UHGV virus genome: UHGV-0149956
DNA from: a virus
Length of the DNA: 64,000 nt
Reading direction: 5' to 3' (one strand)
Part shown: piece by piece, positions 28,923 through 62,076 of the stretch
Numbering within the stretch: the stretch's first letter is position 1
Layout of the letters: every line of letters begins with the position of its first letter
Position numbers and translations under genes: made by a program
The notes under the pieces: generated by a model
Told to the model about the DNA's origin: nothing
The model's database searches: none
What the model saw: the letters and a program-made list of their open reading frames with translations, nothing else

Positions 28923-29009
28923 TAAACAATTTGTTTTCTACGTTTTCTTATTTGAGAAAATCACGTTGTTGGCAGCTCATAGGCTCGTTGTTATACATGG
29001 CTGTATAGA

Positions 29010-40977: not shown

Positions 40978-41001
40978 GAGTCCTTTGAAAACAAAGGACT
41001 C
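40978..41001 (+). promoter_or_regulatory. hairpin sequestering the ribosome-binding site of the GNAT gene
   Basis: GAGTCCTTTG-AAAAC-AAAGGACTC perfect 10-bp stem whose 3' arm contains AAGGA, ending 8 nt before ATG 41010. Confidence 0.45.
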
Positions 41002-41009
41002 ACCATACT

Positions 41010-41618
41010 ATGTCTAATACCTCGGCAAATGAAATTGTACCGCACTTACCGCTAATTTTCGAAAATGAAGCTAATGGGATTCTTCAGGATCTGGCCTATA
41101 CTCCATCGCTTATGGGGTTGATGATGTTCCCGACAGAAGAGGAGCTGAAAGCAGCGAGAAGCTACATAATTAACGTTTTTGAAGAGTGTTACCGAGCCGG
41201 TCATTTGCGCATTATGGGCTTTACTAATGAAGAAAACTTGTTCGGATACGCCTTAATCTTCGGACATCCATCGGGAAATTTTCCGTTGTACTGTCATAAA
41301 ATATATGTATATGAGCAATATCGTGGTAATGGACTTGGAAGTAATATACTGGCAGAAATACTTGCATTTCCAAATGAGGTCGCTTTGATTTGCCAGTCTG
41401 ATTTGGTTCCTTTTTATGAATCAGCCGGAATGCACTTTAAAGGAAATTACACCACTCCATCAGTCGCCAATTTCAAAAAAACTCGCGGCATGTATGAGGG
41501 GCTTTGTTTGATGAGCACTGAAAAAAATGCAAACTCTAATGGTGTACCTATATTCATGCTGAACGATAACGATATTGATAACATCATACAGGCTATCGCA
41601 TCATCGGCACCACGATAA
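41010..41618 (+). CDS. GNAT-family N-acetyltransferase
   Basis: Motif A YVYEQYRGNGLGSNILAEIL (R-x-x-G-x-G) and motif B NEVALICQSDLVPFYESAGMHF; low-GC gene preceded by a 200-bp AT-rich tract. Confidence 0.6.
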   Translation: MSNTSANEIVPHLPLIFENEANGILQDLAYTPSLMGLMMFPTEEELKAARSYIINVFEECYRAGHLRIMGFTNEENLFGYALIFGHPSGNFPLYCHKIYVYEQYRGNGLGSNILAEILAFPNEVALICQSDLVPFYESAGMHFKGNYTTPSVANFKKTRGMYEGLCLMSTEKNANSNGVPIFMLNDNDIDNIIQAIASSAPR

Positions 41619-41700
41619 TATTAATAATTCATCTCGCCGCAGGAACTACAAACCAGTTGATTGTTTGTGAAACGCCCGGTGCAAACCGGGCCAACAAAAC

Positions 41701-41949
41701 TCAATCAGCATTGAGAAGCAATGCATTATCTATGATGATCTGCTCCCATTCTTCGAATGCCCGGTCGCGGACGCCCTGGGGAACACTGTTTGTTTTGAAA
41801 TCGACGACTGTACGCCATTTCCCGTCCGGACGGTACATGCGCAGAGCTTTACTTCCCCCTTCCCTGCGCACCTCAACGTTATGCTTGTCAGCAAACTCTT
41901 GTAATGCTCGTAGCGTCCCATGCTTTACTGTGTAGTATCGCTTTTTCAA
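41701..41949 (-). CDS. lxc: small protein at the end of the ulx-darB transcription unit
   Basis: 82 aa, overlaps the upstream stop; named by synteny and size. Confidence 0.45.
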   Translation of the reverse strand: MKKRYYTVKHGTLRALQEFADKHNVEVRREGGSKALRMYRPDGKWRTVVDFKTNSVPQGVRDRAFEEWEQIIIDNALLLNAD

Positions 41950-42386
41950 GTTTTCTCTCCAGCCTGTGCCAAGGCTTCAACTTCCAAATCGTAAGACTCA
42001 AACTCATAGTCCTGGTCGTCAACTTCTTCAGGCACTGGCAGTAAATGCCAGGCTGAGTATATCTGACCATTATCAAAACGCTCCTGGCTGTAGAGCGTCG
42101 CGGCTATGAGTGTTAGCGCCGGGCGGTCATAACGGTAAATTTTGCGAACGTCACGGTCAACGAGACGACCGAAATTACCATAACCGCGCTCCAGTAATAA
42201 TTTTTTAATTTCCGGCCAGTATGGACCATAGCTGCGGTACAGGCGGGGATTTTTCAGTAATCGCCCGCGTAGCCCTGACAGGAAGAAATCAACGTATTCG
42301 TCTTCTGTCTTTCCTAACAACGCTGTACGGAGTACCGCCTCAAGATATGTTTTATTCGGTTTTATTGTATCAGATAGTGTGGCCAT
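41946..42386 (-). CDS. ulx: small protein downstream of darB
   Basis: 146-aa ORF immediately 3' of darB on the same strand; named by synteny. Confidence 0.45.
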   Translation of the reverse strand: MATLSDTIKPNKTYLEAVLRTALLGKTEDEYVDFFLSGLRGRLLKNPRLYRSYGPYWPEIKKLLLERGYGNFGRLVDRDVRKIYRYDRPALTLIAATLYSQERFDNGQIYSAWHLLPVPEEVDDQDYEFESYDLEVEALAQAGEKT

Positions 42387-42419
42387 ATTATGCGACGCCC
42401 GGCGAACCGGGCGCTCCTG

Positions 42420-45400
42420 TTATGCGTATTGTTGGATGACGGCCAGAACGTCCGCCACGTTGTGTTTTGTCTCGATAATCCACCAGTTACCTGGGAAGTC
42501 GCTGTTCTTCGCCTTCGCTGGCAACCAGCGAGCGCCGAATTTCGCCTTGATTGCGTCTTTCGCACGGAAAAGAACCCCTTTCATGCCGGAGGCTTCCTGA
42601 AGCCCAAATACCTCGCCAGCGGCGAATTTTGGTGCGTACATCATCTTCAGGTCGGCGGTGGATACGCGATAATTCAGACCAAGAGACTGAGCTATGCTGG
42701 TGGCATCACCCTGTATTGATGATAACTCTTCTTGTTTCTCGTTTCTGGCAGCAATTTCTTCCTCCGTGATGTTGCCAAGGGCCAGGTTTATCCGATCAGC
42801 GTCTGCCTGTTTCTCTTCATCGGTGCGCCCGGCAAGTACCGTGTTAATTCTGTGCAATATCTCCACATGATTCTTGCGCATGCTGAGCAATTCCGGCGTA
42901 ACCTCGTTAAGGTCCACCAGCCCAAGGATGGCAAGGTCGGTAAACATTGATACCAGGTTGTAGGTCATGCGATAGCTGAGTTGCCCATAGGCTGATGGCA
43001 ACTGCACCGCATCCATTTTATAGGCATCCATAAATTTAGAGCCGTCGTTTACGACATCCGCAATTGCCGGTGTGATTTTTCCTGTGGTGGCGGCCTCCCT
43101 GATTGCTGTTACCCACGATTGAGTCAGCGCGGCGACTGCATGATTCAGATTGACTTTCCGTTCTGCTGCAATGCGCGCGCTTGCTGCGTCCATTGCCTGC
43201 TTGATCTCGTCTTTATTGCTGTAAATGCCAATGGTGCCAAACTGTGCTGTGGTGATCTCATAATCTGACGCCCGGAACTCATTGGTACCGAAAATGGCAT
43301 TGGTGACTTCAAGTTCAGAATCCCCGTTACGAGTAGCCCCCTGGCTTGTTTTCTCCGGCATTCTGGCGATCGCATCCGCTATTTTCTCCTGAATTGCTTC
43401 AGGGGATAGCATATCTCCGTATGACGCGATTACATCGCCATAATTGGAGCCAAACAGTTCAACCAGGAATGCTTCTGCCGAACGGATCTGGCGGTTATTC
43501 CCTTCCGACATCATACCAAGCACCCATTTTGCAATTGACGACTTCAGCGCGCCGTCACGGCGATCCGGGTAAACCGCATGCTTCAGTGGGTCCGTATAGG
43601 TACCAACAAAATCAATGCTATAGCCTGACTCTGTAGTCTGAACGCCGTATGAGTCAGTGATTTTGATCATGCCGCGCTGCTGGAAACGGTAGAAATCGTC
43701 ACAGGAAACGATGTCGTTAATCCCGGCGATGGAGACGCCACCACTGATTTTCTGCATAACAGCATCTTCATCGGGAGTTACATCAACCTGTTTATCCAGC
43801 GTCTTCACATCCCAGTTACCAGATTTGGTGCCTTTGAAGGTGAAGATGATCTCCACGTCTGCGCGCTGGCTGTCGAAGTCCAGCGACTTAATGCGAACGA
43901 TATCACCGGCACAATCGTAGTATTGGCCTACACGCCATGAGCGATCGCCGATAACAAGGAACTCACTCGCATGGTTAACCAGGTCAGGATCAACATCCAG
44001 AATGCCTTTATTTAATGCATCCTCCACCAGCGGGCGCAGGCGTTTGATATCCGTCGCGGCCTTCTGAGTACGGTTCAATAATTTCTCATAGCGGGAGATG
44101 GCTTGAGAGATATTAGCCTTGCGCTGAATGGCGCTTTTCAACGACGCGCGATACTGTGCTAACAACATACGGTCTGTGTGATGGACACTCCCCCAGCGTG
44201 CCTTCCAGTCTGCGTTATCCGCTGCCTTGGCCATTGCCGCCTGTTTGAATTTAGCTACCTCGGCGGTGGTCTTTTCAAGTTCCGCTTTGCTTCGCTCTAA
44301 TTCAGCGGTAAGCACCTCCACATCCTCACCAGCTGCGTGCTGCGCCTTGATGTAGTTCTGAAGGTCGATAGTAGCCTGTTCTTTCTGGCGAGCGCGTTGC
44401 GCGGCTTTCGCCTTATCCATTTGAACCTGCATCATTGCCAGACGTTCGCCATCATCCTTAGCGGTATACATCTGCATTTCGATCATATCGTTGGCGTCGG
44501 CGTTCTCCATTTCTGACTTATCTGAACGGAGGATATCGGAGATCCAGCCTGCTTTACGCTTCAGCGTCTTCAGTCGGTATTCATCGAAAGAACCCTTGCC
44601 GCAGTAGTAGTGAACGCGAACGCTTGCACGGTTGGAGCCAACTCGGGCACCGCGACCGTTTCGTTGCGCAATACTGGCTGGAGTCCATGGCAACGTCAGA
44701 TGATGGATGTCAGTCGTTCCTCGATGCAGGTTGATACCCACCTCTGCCTTTTTGTTGCAGATGATGATCGGAGTCCGGCCCTCCTGGAAGTCGGCTGCAA
44801 TCTTTTCCAGACCGCCCAACGACATTTCATTTTGCTGCGCGATATAGGCGTCATACAGAGCCATTTGCTCGTTGTATTTCGCTATCTGTGCATCTGTTGG
44901 TTCATCCGGTAACTCTTTCGGCGGTTTAACCGCTTTCAGTTTCTTACCGGTTTTACCTGCCTCGGCAACCGTCTGAGCATTCAGTATCCCCACCTTTGAA
45001 GGTTCAAGGTTAAGAGCATTGCAGATAATGCGCTTGAGCTTCTGGTGCTGCGTTTTTTCATCGGTGAAGATGATTTGCTTACCTTCCGGGAAAAACTCCT
45101 TCAGCGTGGCAATCAGCTTCGCGTATTTGGGCGTAACGGGGTGAGTTACGGTCTGTTCGTCAATGCCAAACCTGGCCAGGCGCTTATTCACTTCCTGCTC
45201 GAACGCTTCCGGAACCTGCAACTGAATAAACTCGCCCTTATCTATCAGGGAGTATTGCGATTGCTGCGTGATTGAATCATCACTGTCGTCGTCTTCGCTG
45301 GTGGCTTGTTTAGGCAAACTGTCCGCCAGCTGCTGCACCGCATCGGCGTACTCCGGCAGGAAACGATAGGTGATCCGGCGATAGTACAGGTCCATGTCAG

Positions 45401-48400
45401 TACATACGCGGTCCATATCCCTGATTATTGAGAAGATCGGACGGGCTTTCTCGTGCTCAATCACGCCGTCTTCATTGACCGAGGTCGTTACGCCATTGTT
45501 GGCTTTGGCCGCCGCTTCCGCCTGCTGACGCAATTCTTCATACGCCGCCAGTTGTTCTTCAGTAAGTGGTGCATCCTGCTGGTGTTCGTCCAGCTCCGGG
45601 ATCTCCACGGTATCCTTAACGTCTTCCGCCGTTTTAAGCGTTACCCAGCGATGGAATATACCGCGCAGCGCATCAAGGTTTTCAAAGCCCACCAGCGCCA
45701 TTTTTTCTTCAACTTCACCGCTGATTTTCTGTACCGTTTCCAGCCTGGTCTTGCCGAAGAATTTAACGAAGTCATCAGGACCGTAGATCCCCATCTTCTG
45801 CCAGTATTCCTTCGGCAGAACATGAGAAAGCATGTTGTATGCATCGATCGGGGTGTTAACGACTGGCGTTGCAGTCAGGAGAACCGGCCCGCGCCCACCA
45901 TTCTTTTTCATCAGGTACGCGTTTTTAATTGCCATATCTCGCGCCGATTGCGCCACCGCGCTGGTGGGCAGATAGGCCAGTTGTGACGCTTCGCGACCAT
46001 TTTTATAGCTATTGCGGTAGTTGTGACCTTCGTCAGCGATCACACTATCGAAGCCCATATCCTCAAAGTACGGATACTTCTCTGCTTTTTCGGTGCCGGT
46101 ATCTGAATACTCCGACAATACCCGGCGACGCGCGGCCTCTTTGCGGTGGGAGTCGGAGTCCATTGCGCTGGCTACGCGCCCGGCGGCAACGAAGTCATAA
46201 AGCATGTCTTGTGCATGCTCATCTACGGTGTCATCACGTAGCGGAATGCGGGCGTATTGTTCTTTGGTAAACACGACTGCACGGTAGTTTGAGTGCGGGA
46301 TCGCGTTCATCCGCGCCGTGATAGTGGCTTCATCTGCCAGCTTAAGAGCATCGCGCATAACTGGAGTGCCATCAGTACCAAGAACAGGTTTACCGTTCTC
46401 ATTGAGCACCGGCACCTGGCGAATCTGATCGCCATCCATCAGCACATCAAGACCGACGAACAAGTAGTTACTGAATGCCTCTTCACTCAGGAATTCTTTT
46501 GCTTCGTAATACCAATTTTCCAGCACTGATTTAGGCACTACATACGCAGTACGGGTAGAGCGACCGTTCTCATAGTTGAACGCCTCAAGCGCCAGCGCGG
46601 TCGTGGTTTTACCCAGCCCGGTGCCGAAGCCCAGGATGCCGCGCCCATCTTCGGACAGTCGGCGCACCTCGCTATTCTGGTAATCAAATGGCTGGCGCTT
46701 ACCGCTTAATCCCTTCAACCCAAGCGGATCGCCAGAGTGTTCATACGGGATATTGCTATTGAACACATCGTTGTATTTGGCAACCAGCTCATCGTAGCGA
46801 TCGTGCGTCTTGATCCACTTATTGAACTGGTCCTCAAGCAGTGCCATCTGCTCGCGGTAGCCGTTCGCCGTCGCGCTATCTTTGCCACCGATACGCGCAC
46901 CATTGAGATACTTTTCCAGCTGTGCCGGGAACCCGGTCGCGTTTTCACCCGATTTACGGTCCCACTCGTAGCGGATCTCGCCTGTTTCTTTATCCTTGCG
47001 CTGGACGACACCGTATCGGTGCCCGACGAACAGACCATCACCACCGTGATAGGTGTCAGAAACCATTTCGTCGCCTTCCAACTGCACTGACTGCACATAG
47101 CGCAGATCCGGATAGCCGTTTTCCTGCAAAAATTCCAGAATGACGGAACGGTCGAACCAACGGCTATTGAGCTTAAACCGGATATTCTCTGCTGGCGTCT
47201 TGATGCGCTTCTCTTCGATAGCTGCCAGCTGATTAAGGACGTTGTTCTTTACTGGACCGTCGGGGAGTGTGGCGAGGAATTCCTGTTTTGGAGCCACTAT
47301 CTCGTTAATGTCGCCGCTGGTGGCGCGGGCGAACGGAACAATCCCGCCATACGGTGAAACCGCAATACCAGGGGTGCTGGCCAATAAATTAAGCAACTCT
47401 TCATCACTGGCTGGCAGTTCGCCGGTAAACGCAAGGCGGAAATCATCGAGCTGGATTGGATCGCGGGTGAGATCGCTATAGAGATAACGCAGGGTGTCCT
47501 GATAGCTGGTGGAGTCATAACTTGCGCTGGAATCATGCGTAACCAGCTTCCCTGTCAGCTCGTCAGAAATAGTGCCATCCAGCTTAATTGCACCACGGAA
47601 AGCAAACCAGGCGCGCGCACCGCTCCCCGACAATTTCGCTATCGGACCGCGACCGGGGTTACCAAAACGGTCAATCTCTGCCTGCAAACGGGATACCAGA
47701 GAAAGGCGCTGCTGTTCGATTTGTTCAGCACTATGCCCGGCGGCCTTCATGTCCTGATATTCAATTAACATCCGGCCAATCATCGCCCCGCGATACAAGC
47801 GTTCACGGTATTTTTCAGGCTGGCTGTTAATCCAGTCCACTAGCTGCACCATATCGTCGCTGATTGATGTGGTGTACTTATCGCGGACATTTGCCATCTG
47901 GGTAAATGTCATACCGAGACGGCCTTCTGTTGTAGTCAGGTTACGCTGAAGAGCCTCCCAGCTGTCCGCGCCATAACTGGCAACATCAATCTTCAGCTCC
48001 TTCCCTGCATCAGATTCAATCCAGCGACCACCAGCATATTTTTGCCATACGCCATTAATCAGGCGCATTTCCCCTTCATCAACAACATCTGCGGTCGGTG
48101 ACGGTTCAGCCATATCGAGCAAAGACCAGTCGATACGACTTTCGAAACGATGAATCAGCTTCGCTTTAAGAGCCTGGTTATCAATCTGCCCGTCGGCACG
48201 AACCTCAATACGCCCCTGGAAGCCCTTTTCCTGGGTACCATGAACAAACCGGCGGCCGTCCTTTTCAAACCACTTGCCAGAAATAAACGTTGGCCAAAGC
48301 ACATTTGCCGATTCAAGAGTGCTTTCATCCACCAGGGGGATTTTCTCAGCCATCTCTGCCGGATGTTTGCGCATCAGCACCACATCAACGACTGTACTGG

Positions 48401-49187
48401 TCCCGTTTGCGTCAAAAGTACCGGTAGGCAAGCGGTGAGCGCCAAGAAATTCAGCTTTACGGGATAGGCGCAGGCGTAACCGCTTCATGTTTGAACCTGA
48501 AACAATGGACGGCGGCACAATCACGCACATGAATCCGCCTGGCTTTATCTTGTCCAGCATGCGGAGCATGAAGTAAGAACCCATGTCCGTTTCTTCTGCG
48601 TAAGGCTTATCGATGTTGCGTGTGTTATCACGACCACCGAACGGAACGTTACCCACAACATGGTCGAATGAATCGTTAGGCGTGCTTACAGCCAGCTGTT
48701 CGAACGGGGAAATCTGTACGCTGTCTTCCGGGTGTAACAGCTGGTTTATACGACCGGAAACACTGCTGATCTCAGTCGCAGTCATCACCGTACCAACCGG
48801 TTTTGTCTCATTAAAAACGCCGGTGCCCGCCGATGGTTCCAGAGTGTTACCTACGTCCGCGCCGTAGAGCTTCATGATCTCCCAGACACCTTCAGCGATC
48901 GGCTTTGGTGTGTAATATTCGGAGACGGACCCGCCAATGCCGCCTTCACCGGTGTACCCAGCCAGGATCTGGCGCTGTTCATCTGTCAGTGTCGCGCCGT
49001 CCACCAGCGAATTAAGCAAATCTATCGCCTTCTGATTCGCCTCCCGGCGCAGTCGGTCATAGCTTTTGCCTTCCACCTTTTCCACGCCGTATTTAATCGG
49101 CGCTCGGTGAGATGTTATTGCCCTAATGTATTTCAATATTTCGCTGACACTTGAACAGCGAAACACCCCCATAGATAGCTTGTTCAT
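42420..49187 (-). CDS. darB: DarB antirestriction protein (methyltransferase-helicase fusion)
   Basis: 2255 aa; N-terminal N6-MTase-like NVPFGGRD; helicase Walker A GFGTGLGKTT and DEGHNYRN box; helicase C-terminal motif IAQRNGRGAR. Confidence 0.85.
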   Translation of the reverse strand: MNKLSMGVFRCSSVSEILKYIRAITSHRAPIKYGVEKVEGKSYDRLRREANQKAIDLLNSLVDGATLTDEQRQILAGYTGEGGIGGSVSEYYTPKPIAEGVWEIMKLYGADVGNTLEPSAGTGVFNETKPVGTVMTATEISSVSGRINQLLHPEDSVQISPFEQLAVSTPNDSFDHVVGNVPFGGRDNTRNIDKPYAEETDMGSYFMLRMLDKIKPGGFMCVIVPPSIVSGSNMKRLRLRLSRKAEFLGAHRLPTGTFDANGTSTVVDVVLMRKHPAEMAEKIPLVDESTLESANVLWPTFISGKWFEKDGRRFVHGTQEKGFQGRIEVRADGQIDNQALKAKLIHRFESRIDWSLLDMAEPSPTADVVDEGEMRLINGVWQKYAGGRWIESDAGKELKIDVASYGADSWEALQRNLTTTEGRLGMTFTQMANVRDKYTTSISDDMVQLVDWINSQPEKYRERLYRGAMIGRMLIEYQDMKAAGHSAEQIEQQRLSLVSRLQAEIDRFGNPGRGPIAKLSGSGARAWFAFRGAIKLDGTISDELTGKLVTHDSSASYDSTSYQDTLRYLYSDLTRDPIQLDDFRLAFTGELPASDEELLNLLASTPGIAVSPYGGIVPFARATSGDINEIVAPKQEFLATLPDGPVKNNVLNQLAAIEEKRIKTPAENIRFKLNSRWFDRSVILEFLQENGYPDLRYVQSVQLEGDEMVSDTYHGGDGLFVGHRYGVVQRKDKETGEIRYEWDRKSGENATGFPAQLEKYLNGARIGGKDSATANGYREQMALLEDQFNKWIKTHDRYDELVAKYNDVFNSNIPYEHSGDPLGLKGLSGKRQPFDYQNSEVRRLSEDGRGILGFGTGLGKTTTALALEAFNYENGRSTRTAYVVPKSVLENWYYEAKEFLSEEAFSNYLFVGLDVLMDGDQIRQVPVLNENGKPVLGTDGTPVMRDALKLADEATITARMNAIPHSNYRAVVFTKEQYARIPLRDDTVDEHAQDMLYDFVAAGRVASAMDSDSHRKEAARRRVLSEYSDTGTEKAEKYPYFEDMGFDSVIADEGHNYRNSYKNGREASQLAYLPTSAVAQSARDMAIKNAYLMKKNGGRGPVLLTATPVVNTPIDAYNMLSHVLPKEYWQKMGIYGPDDFVKFFGKTRLETVQKISGEVEEKMALVGFENLDALRGIFHRWVTLKTAEDVKDTVEIPELDEHQQDAPLTEEQLAAYEELRQQAEAAAKANNGVTTSVNEDGVIEHEKARPIFSIIRDMDRVCTDMDLYYRRITYRFLPEYADAVQQLADSLPKQATSEDDDSDDSITQQSQYSLIDKGEFIQLQVPEAFEQEVNKRLARFGIDEQTVTHPVTPKYAKLIATLKEFFPEGKQIIFTDEKTQHQKLKRIICNALNLEPSKVGILNAQTVAEAGKTGKKLKAVKPPKELPDEPTDAQIAKYNEQMALYDAYIAQQNEMSLGGLEKIAADFQEGRTPIIICNKKAEVGINLHRGTTDIHHLTLPWTPASIAQRNGRGARVGSNRASVRVHYYCGKGSFDEYRLKTLKRKAGWISDILRSDKSEMENADANDMIEMQMYTAKDDGERLAMMQVQMDKAKAAQRARQKEQATIDLQNYIKAQHAAGEDVEVLTAELERSKAELEKTTAEVAKFKQAAMAKAADNADWKARWGSVHHTDRMLLAQYRASLKSAIQRKANISQAISRYEKLLNRTQKAATDIKRLRPLVEDALNKGILDVDPDLVNHASEFLVIGDRSWRVGQYYDCAGDIVRIKSLDFDSQRADVEIIFTFKGTKSGNWDVKTLDKQVDVTPDEDAVMQKISGGVSIAGINDIVSCDDFYRFQQRGMIKITDSYGVQTTESGYSIDFVGTYTDPLKHAVYPDRRDGALKSSIAKWVLGMMSEGNNRQIRSAEAFLVELFGSNYGDVIASYGDMLSPEAIQEKIADAIARMPEKTSQGATRNGDSELEVTNAIFGTNEFRASDYEITTAQFGTIGIYSNKDEIKQAMDAASARIAAERKVNLNHAVAALTQSWVTAIREAATTGKITPAIADVVNDGSKFMDAYKMDAVQLPSAYGQLSYRMTYNLVSMFTDLAILGLVDLNEVTPELLSMRKNHVEILHRINTVLAGRTDEEKQADADRINLALGNITEEEIAARNEKQEELSSIQGDATSIAQSLGLNYRVSTADLKMMYAPKFAAGEVFGLQEASGMKGVLFRAKDAIKAKFGARWLPAKAKNSDFPGNWWIIETKHNVADVLAVIQQYA

Positions 49188-49253
49188 TGGTAATCCTTAA
49201 CAAGTGACTAGTGTTAAATTCCGTTCAAACACGATGTGAATTATTCTAATTAA

Positions 49254-51984
<2,731 letters not shown>

Positions 51985-52275
51985 CCACCAAAAATAACCC
52001 CGGCAGCTGCCGGGGTTCTCGTTAACTATTATCGCCTTCGCCTGCGTGCCATATATTTGCGCACCGCGCGGCGTGGACAATCTGAAGCGGTTTCTTTCTG
52101 CTGCATCAATCTCGCAGCCATGCTCAAAAATGTCAGGCACAGCCGAAGCCCGGCATACAATAGCGGTTCCAGTGGCCACGTCTCATTGAGCACATATACC
52201 GCCATGAAAATCGAGTCAAAAACTATCGCCGCCAGCGATAACTTCATTGTCGAAAGTCGGCGGAGCTGCCGGAGT

Positions 52276-52833
52276 TTATTCATTGACAAGCCCCGTCAGG
52301 CAAAGCTGGCGTTCTTCTTCACGGCGAATCTTTAACCCGGGCAGGGGGACGCCGTTACTGTTCACGAAATCAGGGAGATGGTTACACATATTCACCCATT
52401 CCCCTTTCTGCGCCCACTTGTGGATGGACGTTTCGACTCGCATGCCTCGCGCTTTGCTGTAGTAGGTCCGTAAACTATTGCATCCCATATTGAATGCCGC
52501 GCTTGTCATTGCGCTGAAGGCATTATCGGGCATGTCTTTGCCCCGGAAGTGCTGGTTAATACAGCGTTCAGCGATCAGGATATTCTTTTCCCAATCAGCG
52601 GCGATTTGCTGGTCTGTTTTTCGCACACCCGGCGTTACCCCGTGTGTATTACCGATCCCGTCAGTCCATACCCCCGCCGGGCACATGTATGGATCACGTC
52701 GGCAACCTTCAGCGTTACCAATCAGCTCAAGCCCCGCCTGGTTGGTTCGCACATTGCCATTACCCATCACGATGGTAATCATCACCGCGATAGCGCAAAT
52801 TGCACCGCCTCCTGCGGCTGTTTTTCCCTTCAT
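52276..52833 (-). CDS. lyz: SAR endolysin (T4-lysozyme fold with signal-anchor)
   Basis: 185 aa from MKGKTAAGGGAICAIAVMITIVMG (signal-anchor), then lysozyme core LELIGNAEGCRRDPY...GVWTDGIGNTHG. Confidence 0.85.
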   Translation of the reverse strand: MKGKTAAGGGAICAIAVMITIVMGNGNVRTNQAGLELIGNAEGCRRDPYMCPAGVWTDGIGNTHGVTPGVRKTDQQIAADWEKNILIAERCINQHFRGKDMPDNAFSAMTSAAFNMGCNSLRTYYSKARGMRVETSIHKWAQKGEWVNMCNHLPDFVNSNGVPLPGLKIRREEERQLCLTGLVNE

Positions 52834-52966
52834 AAAGACCTCATAAGCGAATTTTTTACGCTCCAGGACAAACACCCATTCACAGCCAATACCGACTGAC
52901 TCGATCCCTTTAGAAGGCACAGGATAATGCAAATCACTTGTTAGCTACGTTTCAAAGATATACATT

Positions 52967-52983
52967 ATTGCTCTAATTAATTT
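52967..52983 (+). promoter_or_regulatory. C1 operator between lyz and ssb
   Basis: ATTGCTCTAATTAATTT, 16/17. Confidence 0.55.
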
Positions 52984-53002
52984 ATTTTATTAGGTAAGAT
53001 AA

Positions 53003-53491
53003 GTGGCACAACGCGGTGTAAACAAAGTCATCCTGATTGGTACCCTGGGGCAAGACCCGGAGATCAGGTATATACCAAATGGCGGAGCGGTCGGAAGACT
53101 CAGCATCGCAACGAATGAATCATGGCGCGACAAGCAAACGGGCCAACAGAAAGAGCAAACAGAATGGCATAAAGTCGTTTTGTTCGGAAAACTTGCTGAA
53201 ATTGCGAGTGAATATTTACGAAAAGGTTCTCAGGTCTACATCGAAGGGAAACTTAAAACCCGTAAGTGGACAGATGACGCCGGTGTAGAACGTTACACGA
53301 CGGAAATTATCGTCAGCCAGGGCGGCACCATGCAAATGATCGGCGCTCTCCGTGACGATTCACAGTCCTCAAATGGCTGGGGGCAATCAAACCAACCTCA
53401 AAACCACCAGCAATACAGCGGTGGCGGTAAACCTCAGAGCAACGCCAATAACGAACCTCCAATGGACTTTGACGACGATATTCCGTTTTAA
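53003..53491 (+). CDS. ssb: single-stranded DNA-binding protein
   Basis: GTG start; N-terminal OB fold near-identical to E. coli SSB ([53 protein letters not shown]); C-terminal MDFDDDIPF tail. Confidence 0.95.
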
Positions 53492-53590
53492 CGAATAGCT
53501 CCCCCCCCGAGATATTGCTTTCGCTGGTGGGAAAACATTCCTGACCCACCTGAAGGCGCAATACATCAGGTTTTAAGCAGAGGAAAGGCT

Positions 53591-54241
53591 ATGAATAACA
53601 TGACAACGAAAGAGCTTTTTAAATTCCTTCCCAAATACAAAGCTCACAAAAACGTTAGTGCATCGAAAATCAAAAATGTTGTTATTTTCGGAGTAACTGA
53701 TGCCCCACTTTGGGGCTGCATCGAACTCGTTGAACCAAAAGGGGCAACAGTTTGTGTTGACGCAATGTTTTTACAAAAACACCGACCAAAAACTGGCGGG
53801 TATCTGATCGTTTATGAAAACGGTTATCTGTTCTATGCCCCGGAGAAACCATTTGAGCAATGCTATGGCCTGGTTAACGACGCCTCCGAAAATGGAACCA
53901 CGGTCATCATTACGGATGACAACGGCGTGATGATTAATCTTACCGGGAGCGTAACTATTTCTGCTGGTGGCATCACCACCCAGCAAGAAGAAATCGACCT
54001 TGAAGCAGCCGACTTCTCTGACGCGCTAATGTGGTTGAAGGAAGGCAAGAAAGTTGCCCGACGCGAGTGGAAAGGCGAAAAGCAATTCTGCTGGTTAGTT
54101 CTCGCTGGAAGCGTCAATTTACACGACATTCAGGTTCCTTATGGTGACCATTTTGTATTGAAAGATGCACAAAATATGGACAGCGTTTGGTTGCCGTCTG
54201 TGGATGATTTACTGGCCTGTGACTGGTTTGTAGTGGAGTGA
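53591..54241 (+). CDS. two-domain protein with C-terminal DUF2829-like domain
   Basis: C-terminal 75 aa DFSDALMWLKEGKKVARREWKG...WLPSVDDLLACDWFVVE matches the DUF2829 pattern from memory. Confidence 0.5.
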   Translation: MNNMTTKELFKFLPKYKAHKNVSASKIKNVVIFGVTDAPLWGCIELVEPKGATVCVDAMFLQKHRPKTGGYLIVYENGYLFYAPEKPFEQCYGLVNDASENGTTVIITDDNGVMINLTGSVTISAGGITTQQEEIDLEAADFSDALMWLKEGKKVARREWKGEKQFCWLVLAGSVNLHDIQVPYGDHFVLKDAQNMDSVWLPSVDDLLACDWFVVE

Positions 54242-54247
54242 TTTAAC

Positions 54248-55030
54248 GTGGAAAATACTAAAGCAATTCAATACCGCCTGCGTAATGGTCAGAGTGTCGA
54301 AGTGACCATCAATAATGATGGTGTGCCTGGCGAAAAGGTTTCGATCTCTGATCTGGCTATCGAAAAAACCATCATGTGCCACCTTGGCTTTACTGAAGAA
54401 GTGAGCAAAAAGCATGGTGTAGCAATCTGGAGCGCAATGGATACTGGTATGCGCAGATTCATTACTGCTCGTACCCCAGGGATGACCATGATGGACCTCA
54501 TGCAGATTGCACCGCTGTTTGAATGTGAGCCTTTAGATGTATTCAGCAATCCAGCTATCTGCCAGCAGCTATATGGTGAGATGAAACTCGCGGTTACCCC
54601 CATTGTGCTGCATGAAGGATCGCTTGCTGGCGTGTGGAAAGTGGAGCGTATTTCAAGCTACATGCCTTTCCATGTCAACGGCGTAATCACTGGTGAAAAT
54701 CAACCTGTTTCCGTTATAAAGTCAGACCTCAAGCGCGCAATTCTTGAAGCAAGTTGTCGAGTTGTCGGCCTGGGCAAACAGTCTTATGTTTCCTTCCCGG
54801 CTGGCCCTGAAGGCCCGGCAGAAATTCTGATTATGGATGCCGATCTGCTCTGGCAAATACAGTTTCTGATTGGCAAAAGCATCATCCGCGCTGAAGAACT
54901 CGATCAGTACATTACCTGCACGATGACGGATGAAGTCAAAAGTGTGGCTATAGCCAATGCCCGTAACCTATGTCGTGCTGCATTAACAGAACTGCAAGAA
55001 AACACCACGGAAGAAGTGGAAAGCGATTAA
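54248..55030 (+). CDS. hypothetical protein
   Basis: 260-aa ORF with acidic C-terminus. Confidence 0.45.
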   Translation: MENTKAIQYRLRNGQSVEVTINNDGVPGEKVSISDLAIEKTIMCHLGFTEEVSKKHGVAIWSAMDTGMRRFITARTPGMTMMDLMQIAPLFECEPLDVFSNPAICQQLYGEMKLAVTPIVLHEGSLAGVWKVERISSYMPFHVNGVITGENQPVSVIKSDLKRAILEASCRVVGLGKQSYVSFPAGPEGPAEILIMDADLLWQIQFLIGKSIIRAEELDQYITCTMTDEVKSVAIANARNLCRAALTELQENTTEEVESD

Positions 55031-55059
55031 AAAAAATCCCGCCGACTGGCGGGATTTCT

Positions 55060-55371
55060 TCAATATACGATCTGGTCTACATGATCACCAAAATCATCGT
55101 CGTCGTCGTCCTCATCGCCACCATCTACTGCTGGCCAATCAACAAACCAGCCAGCGTAAAGATGCAGCGTTCGGAGAACATCACTTGCGGGAGCATCAAG
55201 GGTGTTAACGAATCCCATATAGCTATTGGGATTTGCCCCAGCTATGGCTTCAGCGATCATGTCCTCGGTAATGTCACCGGAGATAATGCTTAAACGCCCG
55301 GAAACTTCTTCATTATCATCAAATTCGATAATGGCATCTCCACCTAATGGCGCTGCGATTTTAATCTGCAT
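55060..55371 (-). CDS. hxr: small acidic protein at the end of the darA operon
   Basis: 103 aa with poly-Asp tail (GGDEDDDDDDFGD); named by synteny. Confidence 0.4.
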   Translation of the reverse strand: MQIKIAAPLGGDAIIEFDDNEEVSGRLSIISGDITEDMIAEAIAGANPNSYMGFVNTLDAPASDVLRTLHLYAGWFVDWPAVDGGDEDDDDDDFGDHVDQIVY

Positions 55372-58348
55372 TATTTAGCTCCTTTGCCACACCTAATAAC
55401 AGTTCCAGCAATCCGTCACCATTCATCAGTGATGCGGCAGCGGCCTCTTTGTCATGATACAACTGAAGAGCCATAGAGAATACTTCCGTTGCTGACGTTT
55501 TGGAAATAGTCGGAGATTTCTGCCGAATTTTCCCGGTGTTACTTACTGAGGCTGGCGGGTATACCTTCGCCATATAAATATTACTCAATCGAGATCTGAA
55601 GCACCATTCAGGCTTGCCACGCCCACCGATATTGACGAAAGATGGCTTATCCCCTTCAACATTGGCCTTCAGGAATGACCGGGCTTTCTCTAACAAACCA
55701 GGGTTACTGTACTCAAGATGATGACCCAGCTCGTGCCACAGTGCACTTGCATTTTCATCGTTCAAATTGACAGCAACAACACCATTAAGATTTGCGTATG
55801 CCCTTCCCTGGTGGTGAACTACCTTTGATAAGGTCGATATTTTCCCGCCGGTCAGGCGATAAATATCAGCAAGTTCCTTGCGCAGGTCTATCCCACCATT
55901 CTGTCCAGCGCGGACTTCTTCCACTTCTTCTGTGATAAAAGAGTCGGCCCACTCAAGAGCTTTTTCTTCAGATACGGATGAGTTTGCGATCGCACTGTTC
56001 ATGGCAGATAACACTTTCTCGTGGACCGAACCCATACTTCGCTGATTCATTTGCCAGCGTATCTGCGGGTTATATGAGAATCGCTTAAGTAGTTGGTCAA
56101 GCTGCTCAAGTTCTTCTTCACTGACATACTTTTTAGCCTCACCAATAATGCCAGGGAGAATATTGCCGTTAGGATTAAACGCTCGCGAAAGGAAGAGTTT
56201 CAGCGCCCCCATGCCCTCCGATGCTTCAATATCACCAATAACCCGGTTAACAATGGCCGCACTCTTCGGATTAGCATCCGCCAACGCTCTGGCTACGATT
56301 TGCAGGGACGATACGACCTCACGCTGCATATCAGTCCTGATCTCATCAATAAACTCTGGCGTTATGCCGTGCTCTTTAAGAATATCCCGGCCTTCCGCCG
56401 TTACCCCATCGATATCACCGACATGTTTATTAACACGACTTTGCAATGCCTTAAATGCCTTCAGAATTCCACGGGCATCATCCGCTTTACTAACGGCCTT
56501 CCTGAATGCTGGCAAGAAGTCTGAGTTAACCTCATTTTGTTGATCGGCCCACTGAATGGAGGCTTCTTTCATCTCGTCCAGAGTCAGATCACCCAACGCG
56601 GTATGGTCTGTGAATATGAGCGACAACCTCTGAACCATTTCTGCCAATGGTGATGCCGAATGCGCCGCGCTAAGGAATGCTTTCACCCTGGTTGGGCGAA
56701 TGGAAAACCAGTCAATAGCTGGTGGCATATCTCCGTTTTTTATCGCCTGCGCTATCTCGTCAAAGCCATCGCGCCCAAGGGAGGATGCGTGATTTAACAA
56801 GCCGCGAAGTAACGAATTGCTGATACCGAATAATCGGCACCATTTTTTCACGTCGGCAACAGGCATTCGAACAAAATGCGCAAGCACTTGTACAAGCTGT
56901 TCATCCTGGGGATCTGTGCGGGAAAGCAGCCTGATCAGATGAATAATGTCTTTGATGCCGGATGCCCGATGTAATAGCAAACTGGTATACGGAGCAACAC
57001 CGTTGTAACTACCGCCGGAAACGGACTCGAAAAGACCGCCGGATATCCCTTGCATGCCTTCGTTTTCCAGTTCCTGAGACACCTGGCGAAGGATATCCTG
57101 TAACGACACATCGCCGCCGCCAAACATATCCCCCAGCGCCTGGCCCTGGTGCTGTAACTCATCATTGATACGTTGAGCCATCAACTTAAAGGCGGTGGCC
57201 ATACGCTTCGCGCTACGGTTATTCGCGACGATGAACAACGCGAGTGCTTTCACTTCCGGGGCCGTTTCGCTGAACATATCCCCCTGAGCAATAACATCGG
57301 TAATATGCTGGCCTGACTCCTTCGATTGCCTTACCAGGTCTACCGCATCTTTCAATGCCGCCAGCGCCTTTTTATCGAGGCTATCTGCTGTCTCAATGCC
57401 ATCAACAATAGTTGTCACAGCCTGCTTGTGCGCTTCTCCTGATAAAGCCTGCATCTGGACAAAATCATTGGCTGCCGCATTAAGCGCCGTCAGAACATTA
57501 CGCATATCCGGATCAGGTTCTTCTGCAACCATCCTTACCAGGCGCGCATCCTTATATGCCTTGGCAAAGATCGCGTTTTGTATACGGTCAACAAGTTGCC
57601 GCGTTGGTCGCCCATCTTCCGTTACAAGGCCAGCCGCCTGTGTGGCACCAACTTGCGTCATAAATCCGCGAATAAACGCGTCATTACTGCGGCTAAGCAG
57701 ATCTCCGCTTTCTGACGGGTTAAAAAGCGCCATCATCGCCGGTGTTATGCTGTCGGCATCAACAAAAGCCTTTTCACTGGCTGCCATTTCCTGGAGATCA
57801 GAAATATTTGAGTCCTTGGCAAACTGAACACGGTCAACCTTCGTTAACCGGCGGCGCACCAGTACCGGAGCCGTCATTGATTCAACCTTTTCAGGCCGTA
57901 TGCCGAATTCGGTCGCATGTTCAATCAGGTACTCCCGATACCGATCCGCATTACCGTCCTGATAGGCTTTAATGATCCCCATGGTCCGCCCATTACCTGA
58001 CTCAACGGCATTGTCCTCACCAATTATTGGCGCACCATGGCTGGATAAACCGGAATCAGTAAGCTGAGCTGGCCGCAAATCTTTGGATATCTGGTTAACC
58101 TGAAGAAGGCTGGATGCGCGGGTCCGGTCGCGCGGCTGAAGTTCCTGGGGATAGTCAGGATTAATTTTCCCATCCAGAGTATTGGATACCAAAAGAGCTG
58201 AGGCATCGACGATATCAAACGCTGTTTTTACCTCGTCTCCCTTCGCTGTCACCACATACGAAACCCGCCCATAATCGGGCAGGTTCTTTAGCAGCTCGAT
58301 CAGCGTTTCTATGCTGGTGGCCATTACCACCTGATCGCTTAAGCTCAT
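55361..58348 (-). CDS. ddrB: Dar-operon large virion protein
   Basis: 995 aa; placement 3' of ddrA/darA; named by synteny and size. Confidence 0.6.
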   Translation of the reverse strand: MSLSDQVVMATSIETLIELLKNLPDYGRVSYVVTAKGDEVKTAFDIVDASALLVSNTLDGKINPDYPQELQPRDRTRASSLLQVNQISKDLRPAQLTDSGLSSHGAPIIGEDNAVESGNGRTMGIIKAYQDGNADRYREYLIEHATEFGIRPEKVESMTAPVLVRRRLTKVDRVQFAKDSNISDLQEMAASEKAFVDADSITPAMMALFNPSESGDLLSRSNDAFIRGFMTQVGATQAAGLVTEDGRPTRQLVDRIQNAIFAKAYKDARLVRMVAEEPDPDMRNVLTALNAAANDFVQMQALSGEAHKQAVTTIVDGIETADSLDKKALAALKDAVDLVRQSKESGQHITDVIAQGDMFSETAPEVKALALFIVANNRSAKRMATAFKLMAQRINDELQHQGQALGDMFGGGDVSLQDILRQVSQELENEGMQGISGGLFESVSGGSYNGVAPYTSLLLHRASGIKDIIHLIRLLSRTDPQDEQLVQVLAHFVRMPVADVKKWCRLFGISNSLLRGLLNHASSLGRDGFDEIAQAIKNGDMPPAIDWFSIRPTRVKAFLSAAHSASPLAEMVQRLSLIFTDHTALGDLTLDEMKEASIQWADQQNEVNSDFLPAFRKAVSKADDARGILKAFKALQSRVNKHVGDIDGVTAEGRDILKEHGITPEFIDEIRTDMQREVVSSLQIVARALADANPKSAAIVNRVIGDIEASEGMGALKLFLSRAFNPNGNILPGIIGEAKKYVSEEELEQLDQLLKRFSYNPQIRWQMNQRSMGSVHEKVLSAMNSAIANSSVSEEKALEWADSFITEEVEEVRAGQNGGIDLRKELADIYRLTGGKISTLSKVVHHQGRAYANLNGVVAVNLNDENASALWHELGHHLEYSNPGLLEKARSFLKANVEGDKPSFVNIGGRGKPEWCFRSRLSNIYMAKVYPPASVSNTGKIRQKSPTISKTSATEVFSMALQLYHDKEAAAASLMNGDGLLELLLGVAKELNNAD

Positions 58349-58360
58349 CCCTGTTACGCC

Positions 58361-58726
58361 TTATGCTGCCTCTTTAATGTTGGCGGCTATCCATGCCGCA
58401 GTGTGCTGTTTAACCTGGTCCAGGTCGATGTATGTGCCAACATATTGACTCAAATCCTGCAAGGTACCGATAAATGCATCGGTGCTCTGATCGACGAATT
58501 TATCAGCCAGGAAATCAGCAACCAGTTTTGGCACACCATCATGTTCCGAAGGTTGTTTTTCCTCGCCACTACCACCGCCGGACGCGCCGTACCCCATCTG
58601 TTGCATGATCTGGTCAATTTCATCGCTGATATCCAGCAACTCCATGCCACTCGCGGTCGCCGCTTTGGACATCAGAGCATCCAACTTATCGCTGAGATCC
58701 ATTAACTCAATAGCTGATAGTGTCAT
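58361..58726 (-). CDS. ddrA: Dar-operon small protein
   Basis: 121 aa between darA and ddrB. Confidence 0.55.
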   Translation of the reverse strand: MTLSAIELMDLSDKLDALMSKAATASGMELLDISDEIDQIMQQMGYGASGGGSGEEKQPSEHDGVPKLVADFLADKFVDQSTDAFIGTLQDLSQYVGTYIDLDQVKQHTAAWIAANIKEAA

Positions 58727-60642
58727 GCCGCTACCCCCGCTTTCTGGATTGCTACCAACAGATCAGCCAGGTGGCGAGCTGCGCCGTTAACCAGCTCTTC
58801 GTTTTCCTCAAAACGTCCGGCAGCCTGAAGGGCTGCAATCGCTTCCCGGACATTGCCCCGGGCGTTACGGATCTCCGCCATGTCAGTGCTTTGCATATCC
58901 ATCACGTTATTGAGATATTCAATGGCTTTATTAGCCTCTGCATCTGCTTCGCTAACCGTTTCATCAGGCTGTGCCGGGGCAGGTTCTGGCTGAGTAATCT
59001 CACCGACTTCGGCCTGCAATGCATTGATCATGCTCTGCACCATTTTCTCGGTGCCAGCGCCCCCCGGAAACGCAATATTGGGGAAAGTTTTTTGAAACTG
59101 AGTTTTCAGCATTACGCGGAACTCGTCTGGTGAGCTGGTGGCCAGCTCCAGAGCTTTTTGTGCATATTTGCCAAACGGACCATTAGTAAGTGTCTTCGCC
59201 AGGAAGTCGAAAGAATCCTCGCGAGGCAATAACTTCAGGTCGTACTCACTCATTTGCTGATCAGAAAGCGGGGTATCGTAAGTAGCAATGCCGTAGCGTG
59301 CATATTCATAATACGGGTCACCTTCATCAGGGCGCGGCAGAATTGCTTTGTTACCTTCAGGTATTGCGCCAGGGGCCGCCGGACGCATTTGCAGGGCATA
59401 TCGATATGCACCTACAGAGACTTCTGGTTCAGGCGAAGAGCTACCGGTATCCTCCGCTGGTTCAGGTTCGACGTTTTCCGGTTTATGTTCTTCTGGTTGG
59501 ACCAGGTATTCCGATACATTACCCGCTTTATAGGCTTTAAACAGCTTGCCGATCGCATCTGCCATGTCCACACCCTGTATGGATTTAGCCTTGATCATGT
59601 ACACGCTGCCATCCGAATCGGTTAACTGGATATACCCTTCGCCGTCCTCAATGAATTGCTTCATTGATGCACCATTACTGAGCGTCACTTCCCCGTTCAT
59701 ATGCATACGATTTTTGATACTGGCAAGGCGATCCGTCATCGCGCGAGAGTGTCCACCAGTCATCCCCGCAGGAGCAATGGTATCGCGCCCACCAGTGCGA
59801 TTGAGCTGATCAATCTCCGTCTGCAAACGCTCATTCTCTTCATAAAGAGAATCCGCTTCCGATGCAACAGCGTTAATTTTCTGCTCCAGATCTACCTTCT
59901 GCCCTTCTACCGCTGCCACCTGATCCACGAGGTCGCTCATGGCATCCTCTTTCTGGTCACTGTCAGCCTGTAGTTGGGTTATTTCATCAACAAGGGCTTT
60001 TTTCTTCTTCTGCGCACGCTGAAATTTTGCCGAGTTTTTCTCTGCAAGGTTGGCAAGTTTCATGGTGACCTGCGCCAGCGTCATATCACGTCCACTCATC
60101 GGAGCAACGGTGTGAGTAACGTCTTTTTTATTCAGTAAGAACTGGAAAGCAACCAGCGTATCGCTATTGGTGATCCGGTTTTCCGCTGTCGGGCTATGAA
60201 ACAGAATGCTGATAGTCTGACCATCACTGAGCGGAATAATGGCTGGCAGGACCGGCAGCCCGTTAACGTTACGTGCCCGGCCAATTTCAGCACCGCCGAT
60301 CGCGCGCGCGCCGCTCTGGGCCACATCCCCCGTTTTATCACTCCCCGCAGAGATTCCGGTACCATTCAGCTTCTGGTTCAATGCCCGGACAAATGCCTGC
60401 ATGGTCCGGTGTAACTGCAAACGAGTAGAACTAATCGCCTCCAGTAAATCCGTAGCACACCAGTGGATCGGCGTGTCATAGAAGAACGTAGCCTCGATTT
60501 CCTCCAGGGTGTTGGATTCCGTCATCAGATAGCGGTCCTCACCGGCCATTAATGCGCGATATTCATCATCAGTCACTGGCGGGGGAAGCACGTCAAGCCC
60601 AGGCTTGATCGTCACCCCTTTATTGATATTGAACTGTTCCAT
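58723..60642 (-). CDS. darA: DarA antirestriction head protein
   Basis: 639 aa; the upstream hdf product shares local similarity with it (DGQ.I...NSAKFQ). Confidence 0.65.
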   Translation of the reverse strand: MEQFNINKGVTIKPGLDVLPPPVTDDEYRALMAGEDRYLMTESNTLEEIEATFFYDTPIHWCATDLLEAISSTRLQLHRTMQAFVRALNQKLNGTGISAGSDKTGDVAQSGARAIGGAEIGRARNVNGLPVLPAIIPLSDGQTISILFHSPTAENRITNSDTLVAFQFLLNKKDVTHTVAPMSGRDMTLAQVTMKLANLAEKNSAKFQRAQKKKKALVDEITQLQADSDQKEDAMSDLVDQVAAVEGQKVDLEQKINAVASEADSLYEENERLQTEIDQLNRTGGRDTIAPAGMTGGHSRAMTDRLASIKNRMHMNGEVTLSNGASMKQFIEDGEGYIQLTDSDGSVYMIKAKSIQGVDMADAIGKLFKAYKAGNVSEYLVQPEEHKPENVEPEPAEDTGSSSPEPEVSVGAYRYALQMRPAAPGAIPEGNKAILPRPDEGDPYYEYARYGIATYDTPLSDQQMSEYDLKLLPREDSFDFLAKTLTNGPFGKYAQKALELATSSPDEFRVMLKTQFQKTFPNIAFPGGAGTEKMVQSMINALQAEVGEITQPEPAPAQPDETVSEADAEANKAIEYLNNVMDMQSTDMAEIRNARGNVREAIAALQAAGRFEENEELVNGAARHLADLLVAIQKAGVAA

Positions 60643-60643
60643 G

Positions 60644-61255
60644 TTAATTTCCTGCTTTCAGTTGCTTAAGACGGCGTTTGAGTTCGCCATTTCGGGCCTT
60701 TTCGTTATTGAGTCGGCCTGTCTCCTTATCCAGCTTCGCCCGCAAATCAGTGATCTGCTGTTGATTGAAAGACACCGAGTTCTGCGCTGATTTATAAGCG
60801 GCAACCACCTGAGCATTCCGCTGTTTTGCCTCTTGCAGGCGCTGAAAGTTGGATTTTACTGCCGGTTTCTTGTCTACCGGATTGGCAACACGTTTCGCTT
60901 TGGCGATCAGTGATTTCTGGAATTTTGCGGAGTTTTTGCGGGCCGCTTGCCCCATGACGGTACCAAGCGTCTTGATATCCGGCGACTGAGCGTTAGGAAT
61001 AGCTTTTCCATTCAGCCTCACAGACGATATATCGCCAGTATCGTTTACCTGTATGGCAAGAATTTGTCCGTCGTTAAGAACCAGCTTTGCGGTTTTAACT
61101 TTAACGCCATCTTTCGTTGTTGCGCGGTTGCTGGAGTCAACCTCAATTACCGTAACACCGGTTTTATTGATCGCCGCGATAAGGGATTTCAGCCCCTTTT
61201 CATTAACCTGGTCAAAATCGACCGTTGCATACTTATTTTTCGTCATCTGACACAT
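60644..61255 (-). CDS. hdf: DarA-fragment homologue
   Basis: 203 aa; KNSAKFQKSLIAKAK and DGQILAIQV echo darA segments. Confidence 0.55.
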   Translation of the reverse strand: MCQMTKNKYATVDFDQVNEKGLKSLIAAINKTGVTVIEVDSSNRATTKDGVKVKTAKLVLNDGQILAIQVNDTGDISSVRLNGKAIPNAQSPDIKTLGTVMGQAARKNSAKFQKSLIAKAKRVANPVDKKPAVKSNFQRLQEAKQRNAQVVAAYKSAQNSVSFNQQQITDLRAKLDKETGRLNNEKARNGELKRRLKQLKAGN

Positions 61256-61676
61256 CCTGTGCGAGATTTATTACGTAACTTCTGCGGATTTGCTGAGTAA
61301 CAGGGAAAATCCGATACAACGGGTTAATGAACGAGTCGCCATGCGTAACCATGACGTTGAAATGCCACAGTCGCTCTCCTTTACCCATATATTCAGTGGG
61401 TATGTACAACCATTCACTGTTTTCGCCCTGTTCAGCCGACGTCAAACAACGTTGTTCGCCTTCAATCACTGTCGTCGGCTTCTGAACATCGCGGATCCAA
61501 TATCTGACCGTTGCGCCGCGCAAAAACGGGAATTTAGACCGGTATTTGAACGGCACCCGGATGAAACCCGGTTTAATTTCCACATCACCAAGTTCTAAAT
61601 GCGTGATGTCCTTGCGTTTTAGCAAATAGCGATCGGCTAAGGCTAACGCAAGAACGCATACACCCCAGCCAATCAT
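61233..61676 (-). CDS. lydB: lysis regulator (putative antiholin)
   Basis: 147-aa ORF downstream of the holin gene; named by synteny. Confidence 0.45.
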   Translation of the reverse strand: MIGWGVCVLALALADRYLLKRKDITHLELGDVEIKPGFIRVPFKYRSKFPFLRGATVRYWIRDVQKPTTVIEGEQRCLTSAEQGENSEWLYIPTEYMGKGERLWHFNVMVTHGDSFINPLYRIFPVTQQIRRSYVINLAQDVSDDEK

Positions 61677-62002
61677 TTCCCGCCTCCCTTTTTCACCAAA
61701 CTTGTAAGAACATTCAGAATGCTATCGATATTCACTCGTTTCATCCCTGAAATCACCTCATGACCGTTATTGCTGGCTATCGTTACCATTAAGTACGTAA
61801 TTGATAACTCCCAGCCCTCGTGTTGCCCCAATAGGTACGCCACCGCGCCAGCTGTCACTGCAACAAAGATCTCCGTAACCAATCCCAACAAATTGCCAGA
61901 CTGGCGACCGTCTCGGACATCCATCAGGAACGTGCCTATCCCACCAATTACTGAAAGCAGGAGCGCAATAGCAACTGGAGCTAATTCCTGTGTGTCAAGC
62001 AC
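61673..62002 (-). CDS. lydA: holin
   Basis: 109 aa with two or three TM helices (VAIALLLSVIGGIGTFL, VTEIFVAVTAGAVAYLL) and charged C-terminus. Confidence 0.6.
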   Translation of the reverse strand: MLDTQELAPVAIALLLSVIGGIGTFLMDVRDGRQSGNLLGLVTEIFVAVTAGAVAYLLGQHEGWELSITYLMVTIASNNGHEVISGMKRVNIDSILNVLTSLVKKGGGK

Positions 62003-62076
62003 AAGTTCCCTCCTACGTTGTCAGGAGGTAATGGTATGCAAAGTAACTTCTCAACCGGTTATGTTGCATAAGAGAC

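Follow-up and report, generated by a model that had tools for sequence, protein, structure and literature searches.

The closest described counterpart of the locus studied here is the Dar (defense against restriction) system of phage P1, which consists of six proteins: Hdf, DarA, DdrA, DdrB, Ulx and DarB (PMC9024508, PMC12810830). All six are detected in P1 virions, into which they are incorporated stepwise (PMC9024508). In the P1 head, 55 DarA-Hdf pairs touch the DNA at the penton-hexon junctions of the inner capsid surface, and roughly the first 69 residues of DarA are removed by Pro (PMC12810830). When either DarA or Hdf is missing, all the other Dar proteins are lost from the particle and head size is shifted; the components join in order and all of them are thought to exit with the DNA (PMC12810830). 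Ulx, itself found in virions, helps the localisation and packaging of DarB, and the first 30 residues of DarB suffice to direct a reporter into the capsid (PMC9024508). Protection is exerted only in cis (PMC12707154), DarA being needed against EcoA and StySA, and DarB, Ulx and DdrB against EcoB and EcoK (PMC9024508, PMC12810830). Here we describe the Dar genes found in UHGV virus genome UHGV-0149956, of which a 64-kb stretch (hereafter the window) was analyzed. Sequence comparison makes it very probable that the Dar system encoded here, in a P1-like phage-plasmid, has all six of its proteins and that it works as it does in P1.

The Dar genes compared with those of P1

Annotated genes of the P1 reference (GenBank AF234172 / NC_005856) were translated and compared with the open reading frames (ORFs) of the window. 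The window was identified as part of a P1-like (Punavirus) phage-plasmid. On a whole-window map it is colinear with P1 from P1 coordinate 64934 via lox (94800/1) to about 31836, with eight stretches lacking a P1 match. The full element measures roughly 95 kb, so that about two-thirds of it is covered, and the approximately 30 kb beyond the window correspond to P1 coordinates of about 32-65 kb. A megablast search of positions 42000-62000 against a phage collection returned 17 records with at least 80% query cover and about 98% nucleotide identity, including P1, P7, SJ46, RCS47 and JL22.

All six Dar ORFs are full-length, carry neither indels nor stops and are 98.0-99.0% identical to the P1 proteins, from which each differs by 2-23 amino-acid substitutions (Table 1). 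The genes, their order, orientation and overlaps, and the domain content of their products are the same as in P1. An earlier note made on this DNA had placed a complete Dar complement at 42420-61255. The five genes that it listed are intact, but ulx, which sits 33 bp past the darB end of this span, had been left out and the set is complete only once it is added. Its product matches PHROG 1629 ('Ulx-like anti-restriction', 4.5e-66).

Two of the Dar genes, ulx and darB, form a cluster next to lxc and prt. The other four belong to a late transcription unit of seven genes, lydA-lydB-hdf-darA-ddrA-ddrB-hxr, the order and overlaps of which are those of P1. Its junctions range from a 23-bp overlap (lydB/hdf) to a 12-bp gap, with overlaps of 4 bp between lydA and lydB and of 11 bp between hxr and ddrB. 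The hdf-darA-ddrA-ddrB operon of the earlier note is indeed tightly packed and separate from darB, but the real unit runs from lydA-lydB through hxr. The products of hdf and darA share a DarA_N domain (Pfam, 1.5e-21 in Hdf and 3.8e-42 in DarA, the latter also carrying DarA_C at 5.7e-17), and a direct BLASTP comparison aligned them at 31% identity across 90 residues (E = 8e-4), in agreement with the previous remark that the hdf product echoes segments of darA. Full-length matches were obtained between DarA and the 'Defense against restriction protein A' of the P1 virion solved by cryo-electron microscopy (PDB 9ukm, chain I, and 9vz0), and between Hdf and 9ukm chain H ('Hdf'). Hdf, in which a DarA_N-type domain is followed by the C-terminal helix domain, is homologous to the N-terminal domain of DarA and, in P1, pairs with DarA on the inner capsid surface. 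DarA differs from its P1 counterpart by 13 substitutions. DdrA was assigned to PHROG 1855 ('DdrA-like anti-restriction protein', 9.8e-58). DdrB carries the Pfam domain ddrB-ParB (1.9e-39, residues 36-167) and retains a HELGH sequence at residue 872 that fits the predicted C-terminal zincin peptidase (HExxH), as in the reading of DdrB-type proteins as a ParB domain joined to a C-terminal zincin domain (PMC5512222).

DarB aligns with P1 DarB over its full length and without gaps, with 23 substitutions in 2255 residues. The N6_Mtase, Eco57I, SNF2-rel_dom, ResIII and Helicase_C domains of Pfam were all detected, and motif alignment placed methyltransferase motif I (LEPSAGTG) at residues 116-123, motif IV (NVPF, aligned with NPPF of the EcoKI M protein) at 180-183, and helicase motifs I (GLGKT), II (DEGH), III (TAT) and VI (QRNGRGAR) at about 857-861, 1052-1055, 1105-1107 and 1507-1514, respectively. 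The ORF, the Pfam domains and the motifs thus agree with the claim of a 2255-residue ORF with methyltransferase-like and DExH helicase motifs, and the alignment to P1 DarB and DarA that had been proposed as a check revealed no loss of either set of motifs. The strict patterns NPPY/F/W and G..GK[TS] found no match in DarB; the protein itself and HMMER alignments have NVPF and GLGKT at these places. The non-canonical NVPF is also present in P1 DarB and is therefore not peculiar to the window copy. None of the 23 substitutions lies inside a methyltransferase or helicase motif, and the 30 N-terminal residues are identical to those of P1. Beyond residue 1650 are found 15 of the 23.

The Dar regions of SJ46, RCS47, JL22, P7 and pMUB-MIN10-2 (NZ_CP069679.1) are 98-99.5% identical to the window at the nucleotide level. 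SJ46 and pMUB-MIN10-2 differ from it in that ddrB and ddrA are separated by a TnpB insertion of the IS200/IS605 type, whereas the operon of the window is uninterrupted; likewise, darB is annotated as two pieces in SJ46 and is in one piece in the window. Relative to P1, the window lacks IS1 in the isaA region and has no adjoining res-mod genes.

Table 1. Positions of the Dar genes, their expression signals and other genes of the region (numbering of the window; aa, amino acids)
Feature	Position	Strand	Description
lpa	32533-32985	plus	Late promoter activator required for LPdar; 99.3% identical to P1 over 150 aa
res-mod slot replacement	40811-41702	plus	About 0.9 kb of non-P1 DNA with the GNAT gene
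GNAT acetyltransferase gene	41010-41618	plus	202 aa; Pfam GNAT domains
ulx	41946-42386	minus	146 aa; 98.6% identical to P1 Ulx; sixth Dar component
darB	42420-49187	minus	2255 aa; N6-adenine methyltransferase-like and SF2/SNF2-type DExH helicase domains; 98.98% identical to P1 DarB
LPpro	49202-49220		Identical to P1
PdarB	49243-49273	minus	Predicted sigma-70 promoter, darB-prt intergenic; exact match to P1-annotated PdarB
pro	50965-51984	plus	Prohead protease; 99.7% identical to P1 Pro over 339 aa; not a Dar gene
Tad2-like gene	53591-54241	plus	216 aa; C-terminal 80 residues are Tad2/DUF2829 (Thoeris anti-defence 2)
isaA-like ORF	54248-55030	plus	260 aa; corresponds to residues 60-320 of P1 IsaA, 94.6% identity
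hxr	55060-55371	minus	Xre-like possible repressor; 97% identical to P1 Hxr; no known Dar role
ddrB	55361-58348	minus	995 aa; 98.99% identical to P1 DdrB
ddrA	58361-58726	minus	121 aa; 98.3% identical to P1 DdrA
darA	58723-60642	minus	639-aa internal head protein; 98.0% identical to P1 DarA
hdf	60644-61255	minus	203 aa; 98.5% identical to P1 Hdf
lydB	61233-61676	minus	Antiholin; 98.6% identical to P1 LydB
lydA	61673-62002	minus	Holin; 100% identical to P1 LydA
LPdar	62031-62049	minus	Lpa-dependent late promoter of the lydAB-dar operon; exact 19-bp match to P1, AAGTTACTTTGCATACCAT

Expression and expected mode of action

Expression signals were assigned by identity to promoters annotated in P1, and in both clusters generic promoter and terminator scans yielded no more hits than expected from shuffled sequence. 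LPdar, PdarB and the N-terminal targeting peptide of DarB are the same in P1 and in the window, as are all 75 bp of the darB-prt intergenic region. The P1-annotated promoter P3lxc, located inside ulx, has no exact match in the window. The activator Lpa and the protease Pro are conserved (Table 1), and the portal Prt is 99.5% identical to that of P1.

Because the Dar proteins are nearly identical to those of P1, they most likely operate in the same manner, and we infer packaging, ejection and protection for this element from the experiments performed in P1. Lpa would switch on LPdar late in lytic growth, upon which Hdf and DarA would attach to the inner face of the assembling capsid and Pro would trim DarA. 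DdrA would be added next, followed by DdrB and then by Ulx and DarB, the latter presumably directed to the capsid by its 30 N-terminal residues. All Dar proteins would leave the head together with the DNA and work in cis on this molecule, with DarA, Hdf and DdrA shielding it against EcoA-family type I enzymes and DarB, aided by Ulx and DdrB, shielding it against EcoB and EcoK. The 64 kb contain 7 EcoKI, 12 EcoBI and 1 EcoAI recognition sites and, because of these, the DNA of the window is a type I substrate. Nothing in the sequence of the window copy points to a behaviour differing from that of P1.

Several observations weigh against a functional P1-like system. Gene 23, which encodes the major capsid protein, and the tail genes lie in P1 within the part that corresponds to the roughly 30 kb outside the window, and at least one close relative, JL22, formed no plaques on MG1655 (PMC9603915). 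In DarA, substitution P343S falls in loop 342-346, a penton contact in the P1 structure. Motif IV of DarB reads NVPF instead of NPPF/Y, and methyltransferase activity of DarB is consequently not assured. Finally, plasmid-based darB assays are confounded by Chi-dependent, DNA-mediated restriction alleviation (PMC11109961).

These points feed into three alternative readings. The Dar genes might be intact yet carried unused on a plasmid prophage that is cryptic or defective and rarely or never infectious, as could be suspected from an element of which just 64 kb of about 95 kb is visible, from the existence of plaque-negative P1-like plasmids such as JL22 and from a mosaic backbone in which several variable regions have been swapped. 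However, the small number of changes in DarB and the absence of stops and frameshifts from the six genes argue for ongoing purifying selection, the late promoters, Lpa, Pro, Prt, PacA/PacB and C1 are intact, and full-length dar genes are kept in more than 400 sequenced plasmids; we therefore regard a cryptic prophage as unlikely. It has also to be considered that darB anti-restriction might stem from the DNA itself, Chi and type I sites triggering a ClpXP-dependent alleviation in which the DarB protein plays no role, since darB plasmids with premature stops still inhibited EcoKI in a manner dependent on Chi and EcoKI sites (PMC11109961). Chi (GCTGGTGG) occurs 50 times in the window when both strands are counted, and darB holds 10 of these sites compared to 11 in P1 darB, but no EcoKI site was found in darB; both features bear on the reported alleviation (PMC11109961). 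Moreover, the effect was reported for resident multicopy plasmids and not for an infecting phage, P1 becomes sensitive to EcoB and EcoK when darB or the helpers of its packaging are lost, and conservation of the intact 2255-residue ORF across hundreds of plasmids argues for a protein function. An effect of the DNA without the protein is thus very unlikely.

We give still less credit to the idea that DarB is the element's own modification enzyme, replacing the missing mod and providing no shield for incoming DNA. Its N-terminal domain does match N6_Mtase, Eco57I-type methylases and the EcoKI M protein, but only weakly (E between 1e-8 and 1e-4), the NVPF of motif IV departs from the canonical form, and the surrounding genes encode no specificity subunit. 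In addition, protection in P1 is cis-only and packaging-dependent (PMC12707154), and the mechanism of DarB is described as undefined (PMC11109961). A complete Dar system, most likely working as in P1, is the preferred interpretation of the locus.

The res-mod slot and other variable regions

In P1, the res and mod genes of the type III system EcoP1I lie between mat and lxc. In the window, the match to P1 ends at 40810 (the end of mat) and restarts at 41703 (lxc), the intervening stretch carrying the GNAT gene (Table 1). No significant match to EcoP1I Res or Mod was found in the 64 kb, either by tblastn with P1 Res (970 residues) and a 641-residue reconstruction of Mod or by blastn with the 6.3 kb of P1 3469-9749. 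The earlier note had opposed the virion-borne anti-restriction of the element to the lack of its own res-mod genes. The lack holds within the window, but not as a notable contrast since most P1-like plasmids show it. PLSDB contains 441 records in which darB is covered to at least 80% and 429 in which the lydAB-dar operon is covered to that extent, compared to only 108 with an EcoP1I-like res, of which 48 reach 99% identity or more. Among these 108 are several plasmids of about 40 kb from Klebsiella, Enterobacter or Raoultella that are not P1-like. Most sequenced P1-like phage-plasmids, like the window, thus carry Dar and lack EcoP1I, and this is the usual state of the family and not a distinguishing trait of the element. 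The full annotation of pMUB-MIN10-2, the nearest plasmid that shares the GNAT junction of the window and therefore taken as a stand-in for the rest of the element, lists Dmt and DarB as the only methylases and no restriction endonuclease, PLSDB gene tables being incomplete; Dmt, an orphan Dam-type methyltransferase, is also present in the window at 1479-3743.

The mat-GNAT-lxc junction is found in at least 21 PLSDB plasmids, including pMUB-MIN10-2. In other plasmids, a gene with a RelA/SpoT domain occupies the same slot. The GNAT protein is nearly identical to PDB 9s30_A (E = 8.7e-137) and belongs to PHROG 10454, a group of unknown function; a literature search returned no relevant paper for PDB 9S30 and none on GNAT in P1-like defence hotspots. 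Elsewhere in the non-P1 DNA, the ORFs are of Ead/Ea22-like, DUF551 or unknown type. No PADLOC hit was obtained for the non-P1 ORFs, those for GNAT and the Tad2-like protein included, and PADLOC and NCBIfam scans of the GNAT, Tad2-like and other proteins were empty. It is rather improbable that GNAT provides a new single-gene exclusion or counter-defence function, or that the cluster of DarB substitutions past residue 1650 shifts the type I range. If GNAT did act in counter-defence, virion-borne Dar would be paired with two more conflict modules, GNAT and Tad2.

About 6 kb of the 42420-61255 span, between darB and ddrB, consists of non-Dar genes: prt, pro, lydD, lyz, ssb, the Tad2-like gene, the isaA-like ORF and hxr, to which the P1 annotation adds lydE. 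The segment 53490-54251, in the isaA-IS1-isaB variable region, has no P1 match, and homologues of its Tad2-like gene are present in SJ46, D6 and pMUB-MIN10-2. The Tad2 assignment comes from Pfam PF11195 (2.4e-18) and from PDB 9eib (ModTad2) and 8v3e (Tad2), both at about 2e-10; the N-terminal 136 residues or so have no assigned function. Compared to the two-gene layout of the window and of SJ46, the 320-residue isaA of P1 may be the product of a fusion or rearrangement beside IS1. An apparent 81% DNA match between the Tad2-like and isaA-like genes was rejected as a sign of paralogy, as it was an artefact of mixing P1 and SJ46 subjects and BLASTP revealed no similarity between the proteins.

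Variable regions described in P1-like phage-plasmids include res-mod (region 1), isaA-IS1-isaB (region 2), lydC/cin/tail fibre (region 3) and pmgT-humD (region 8) (PMC9603915), and most of the larger non-P1 stretches on the map of the window fall into such published regions. At 20533-29383, about 8.5 kb of non-P1 DNA stand in place of the pmgT-to-hot/lxr region of P1 and encode two Ead/Ea22-like proteins, a 423-residue protein that ends in a DUF551 domain and several ORFs without a family. No identical record was found for 20000-30000 in PLSDB or among complete E. coli genomes (best cover 74% and 71%), and the mosaic at 20533-29383 appears to be unique among the records of these two collections. 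In the packaging module, the terminase subunit PacB (34265-35749, plus strand) is just 88.7% identical to that of P1 and PacA 95.7%, compared to 98-99% for the neighbouring backbone genes; this divergence suggests a recombinant tract within the module. Next to the late operon, a homologue of the LydC-type holin (62077-62340, minus strand) is 67% identical to P1 LydC, in contrast to the full identity of LydA. The match to P1 is weaker past 62644, with a cin/invertase-like region at 69% nucleotide identity.

Relation to virion-delivered effectors and significance

The modules found in the Dar proteins are among those listed for polyvalent effectors delivered by virions, namely DarA_N, DdrB-ParB, zincin peptidase and SNF2 helicase (PMC5512222). 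These effectors (Iyer et al. 2017), which are large multidomain proteins, and the internal head proteins of T4 (IPI*) likewise travel inside the capsid and enter the cell along with the DNA to counter host restriction, but their likeness to Dar is a functional analogy only. IPI* has no sequence relation to Dar and inhibits a type IV enzyme through direct binding.

In conclusion, the identification of Dar in the window is correct, but the system is already known and well characterised, and the element adds one member to a family that has been sampled very well; the value of the result extends little past a correct annotation. What the locus contains is an intact, classic virion-delivered anti-restriction system, of the kind that helps P1-like elements to move among E. 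coli and Salmonella strains whose type I systems differ, and P1-like phage-plasmids often bear resistance genes.

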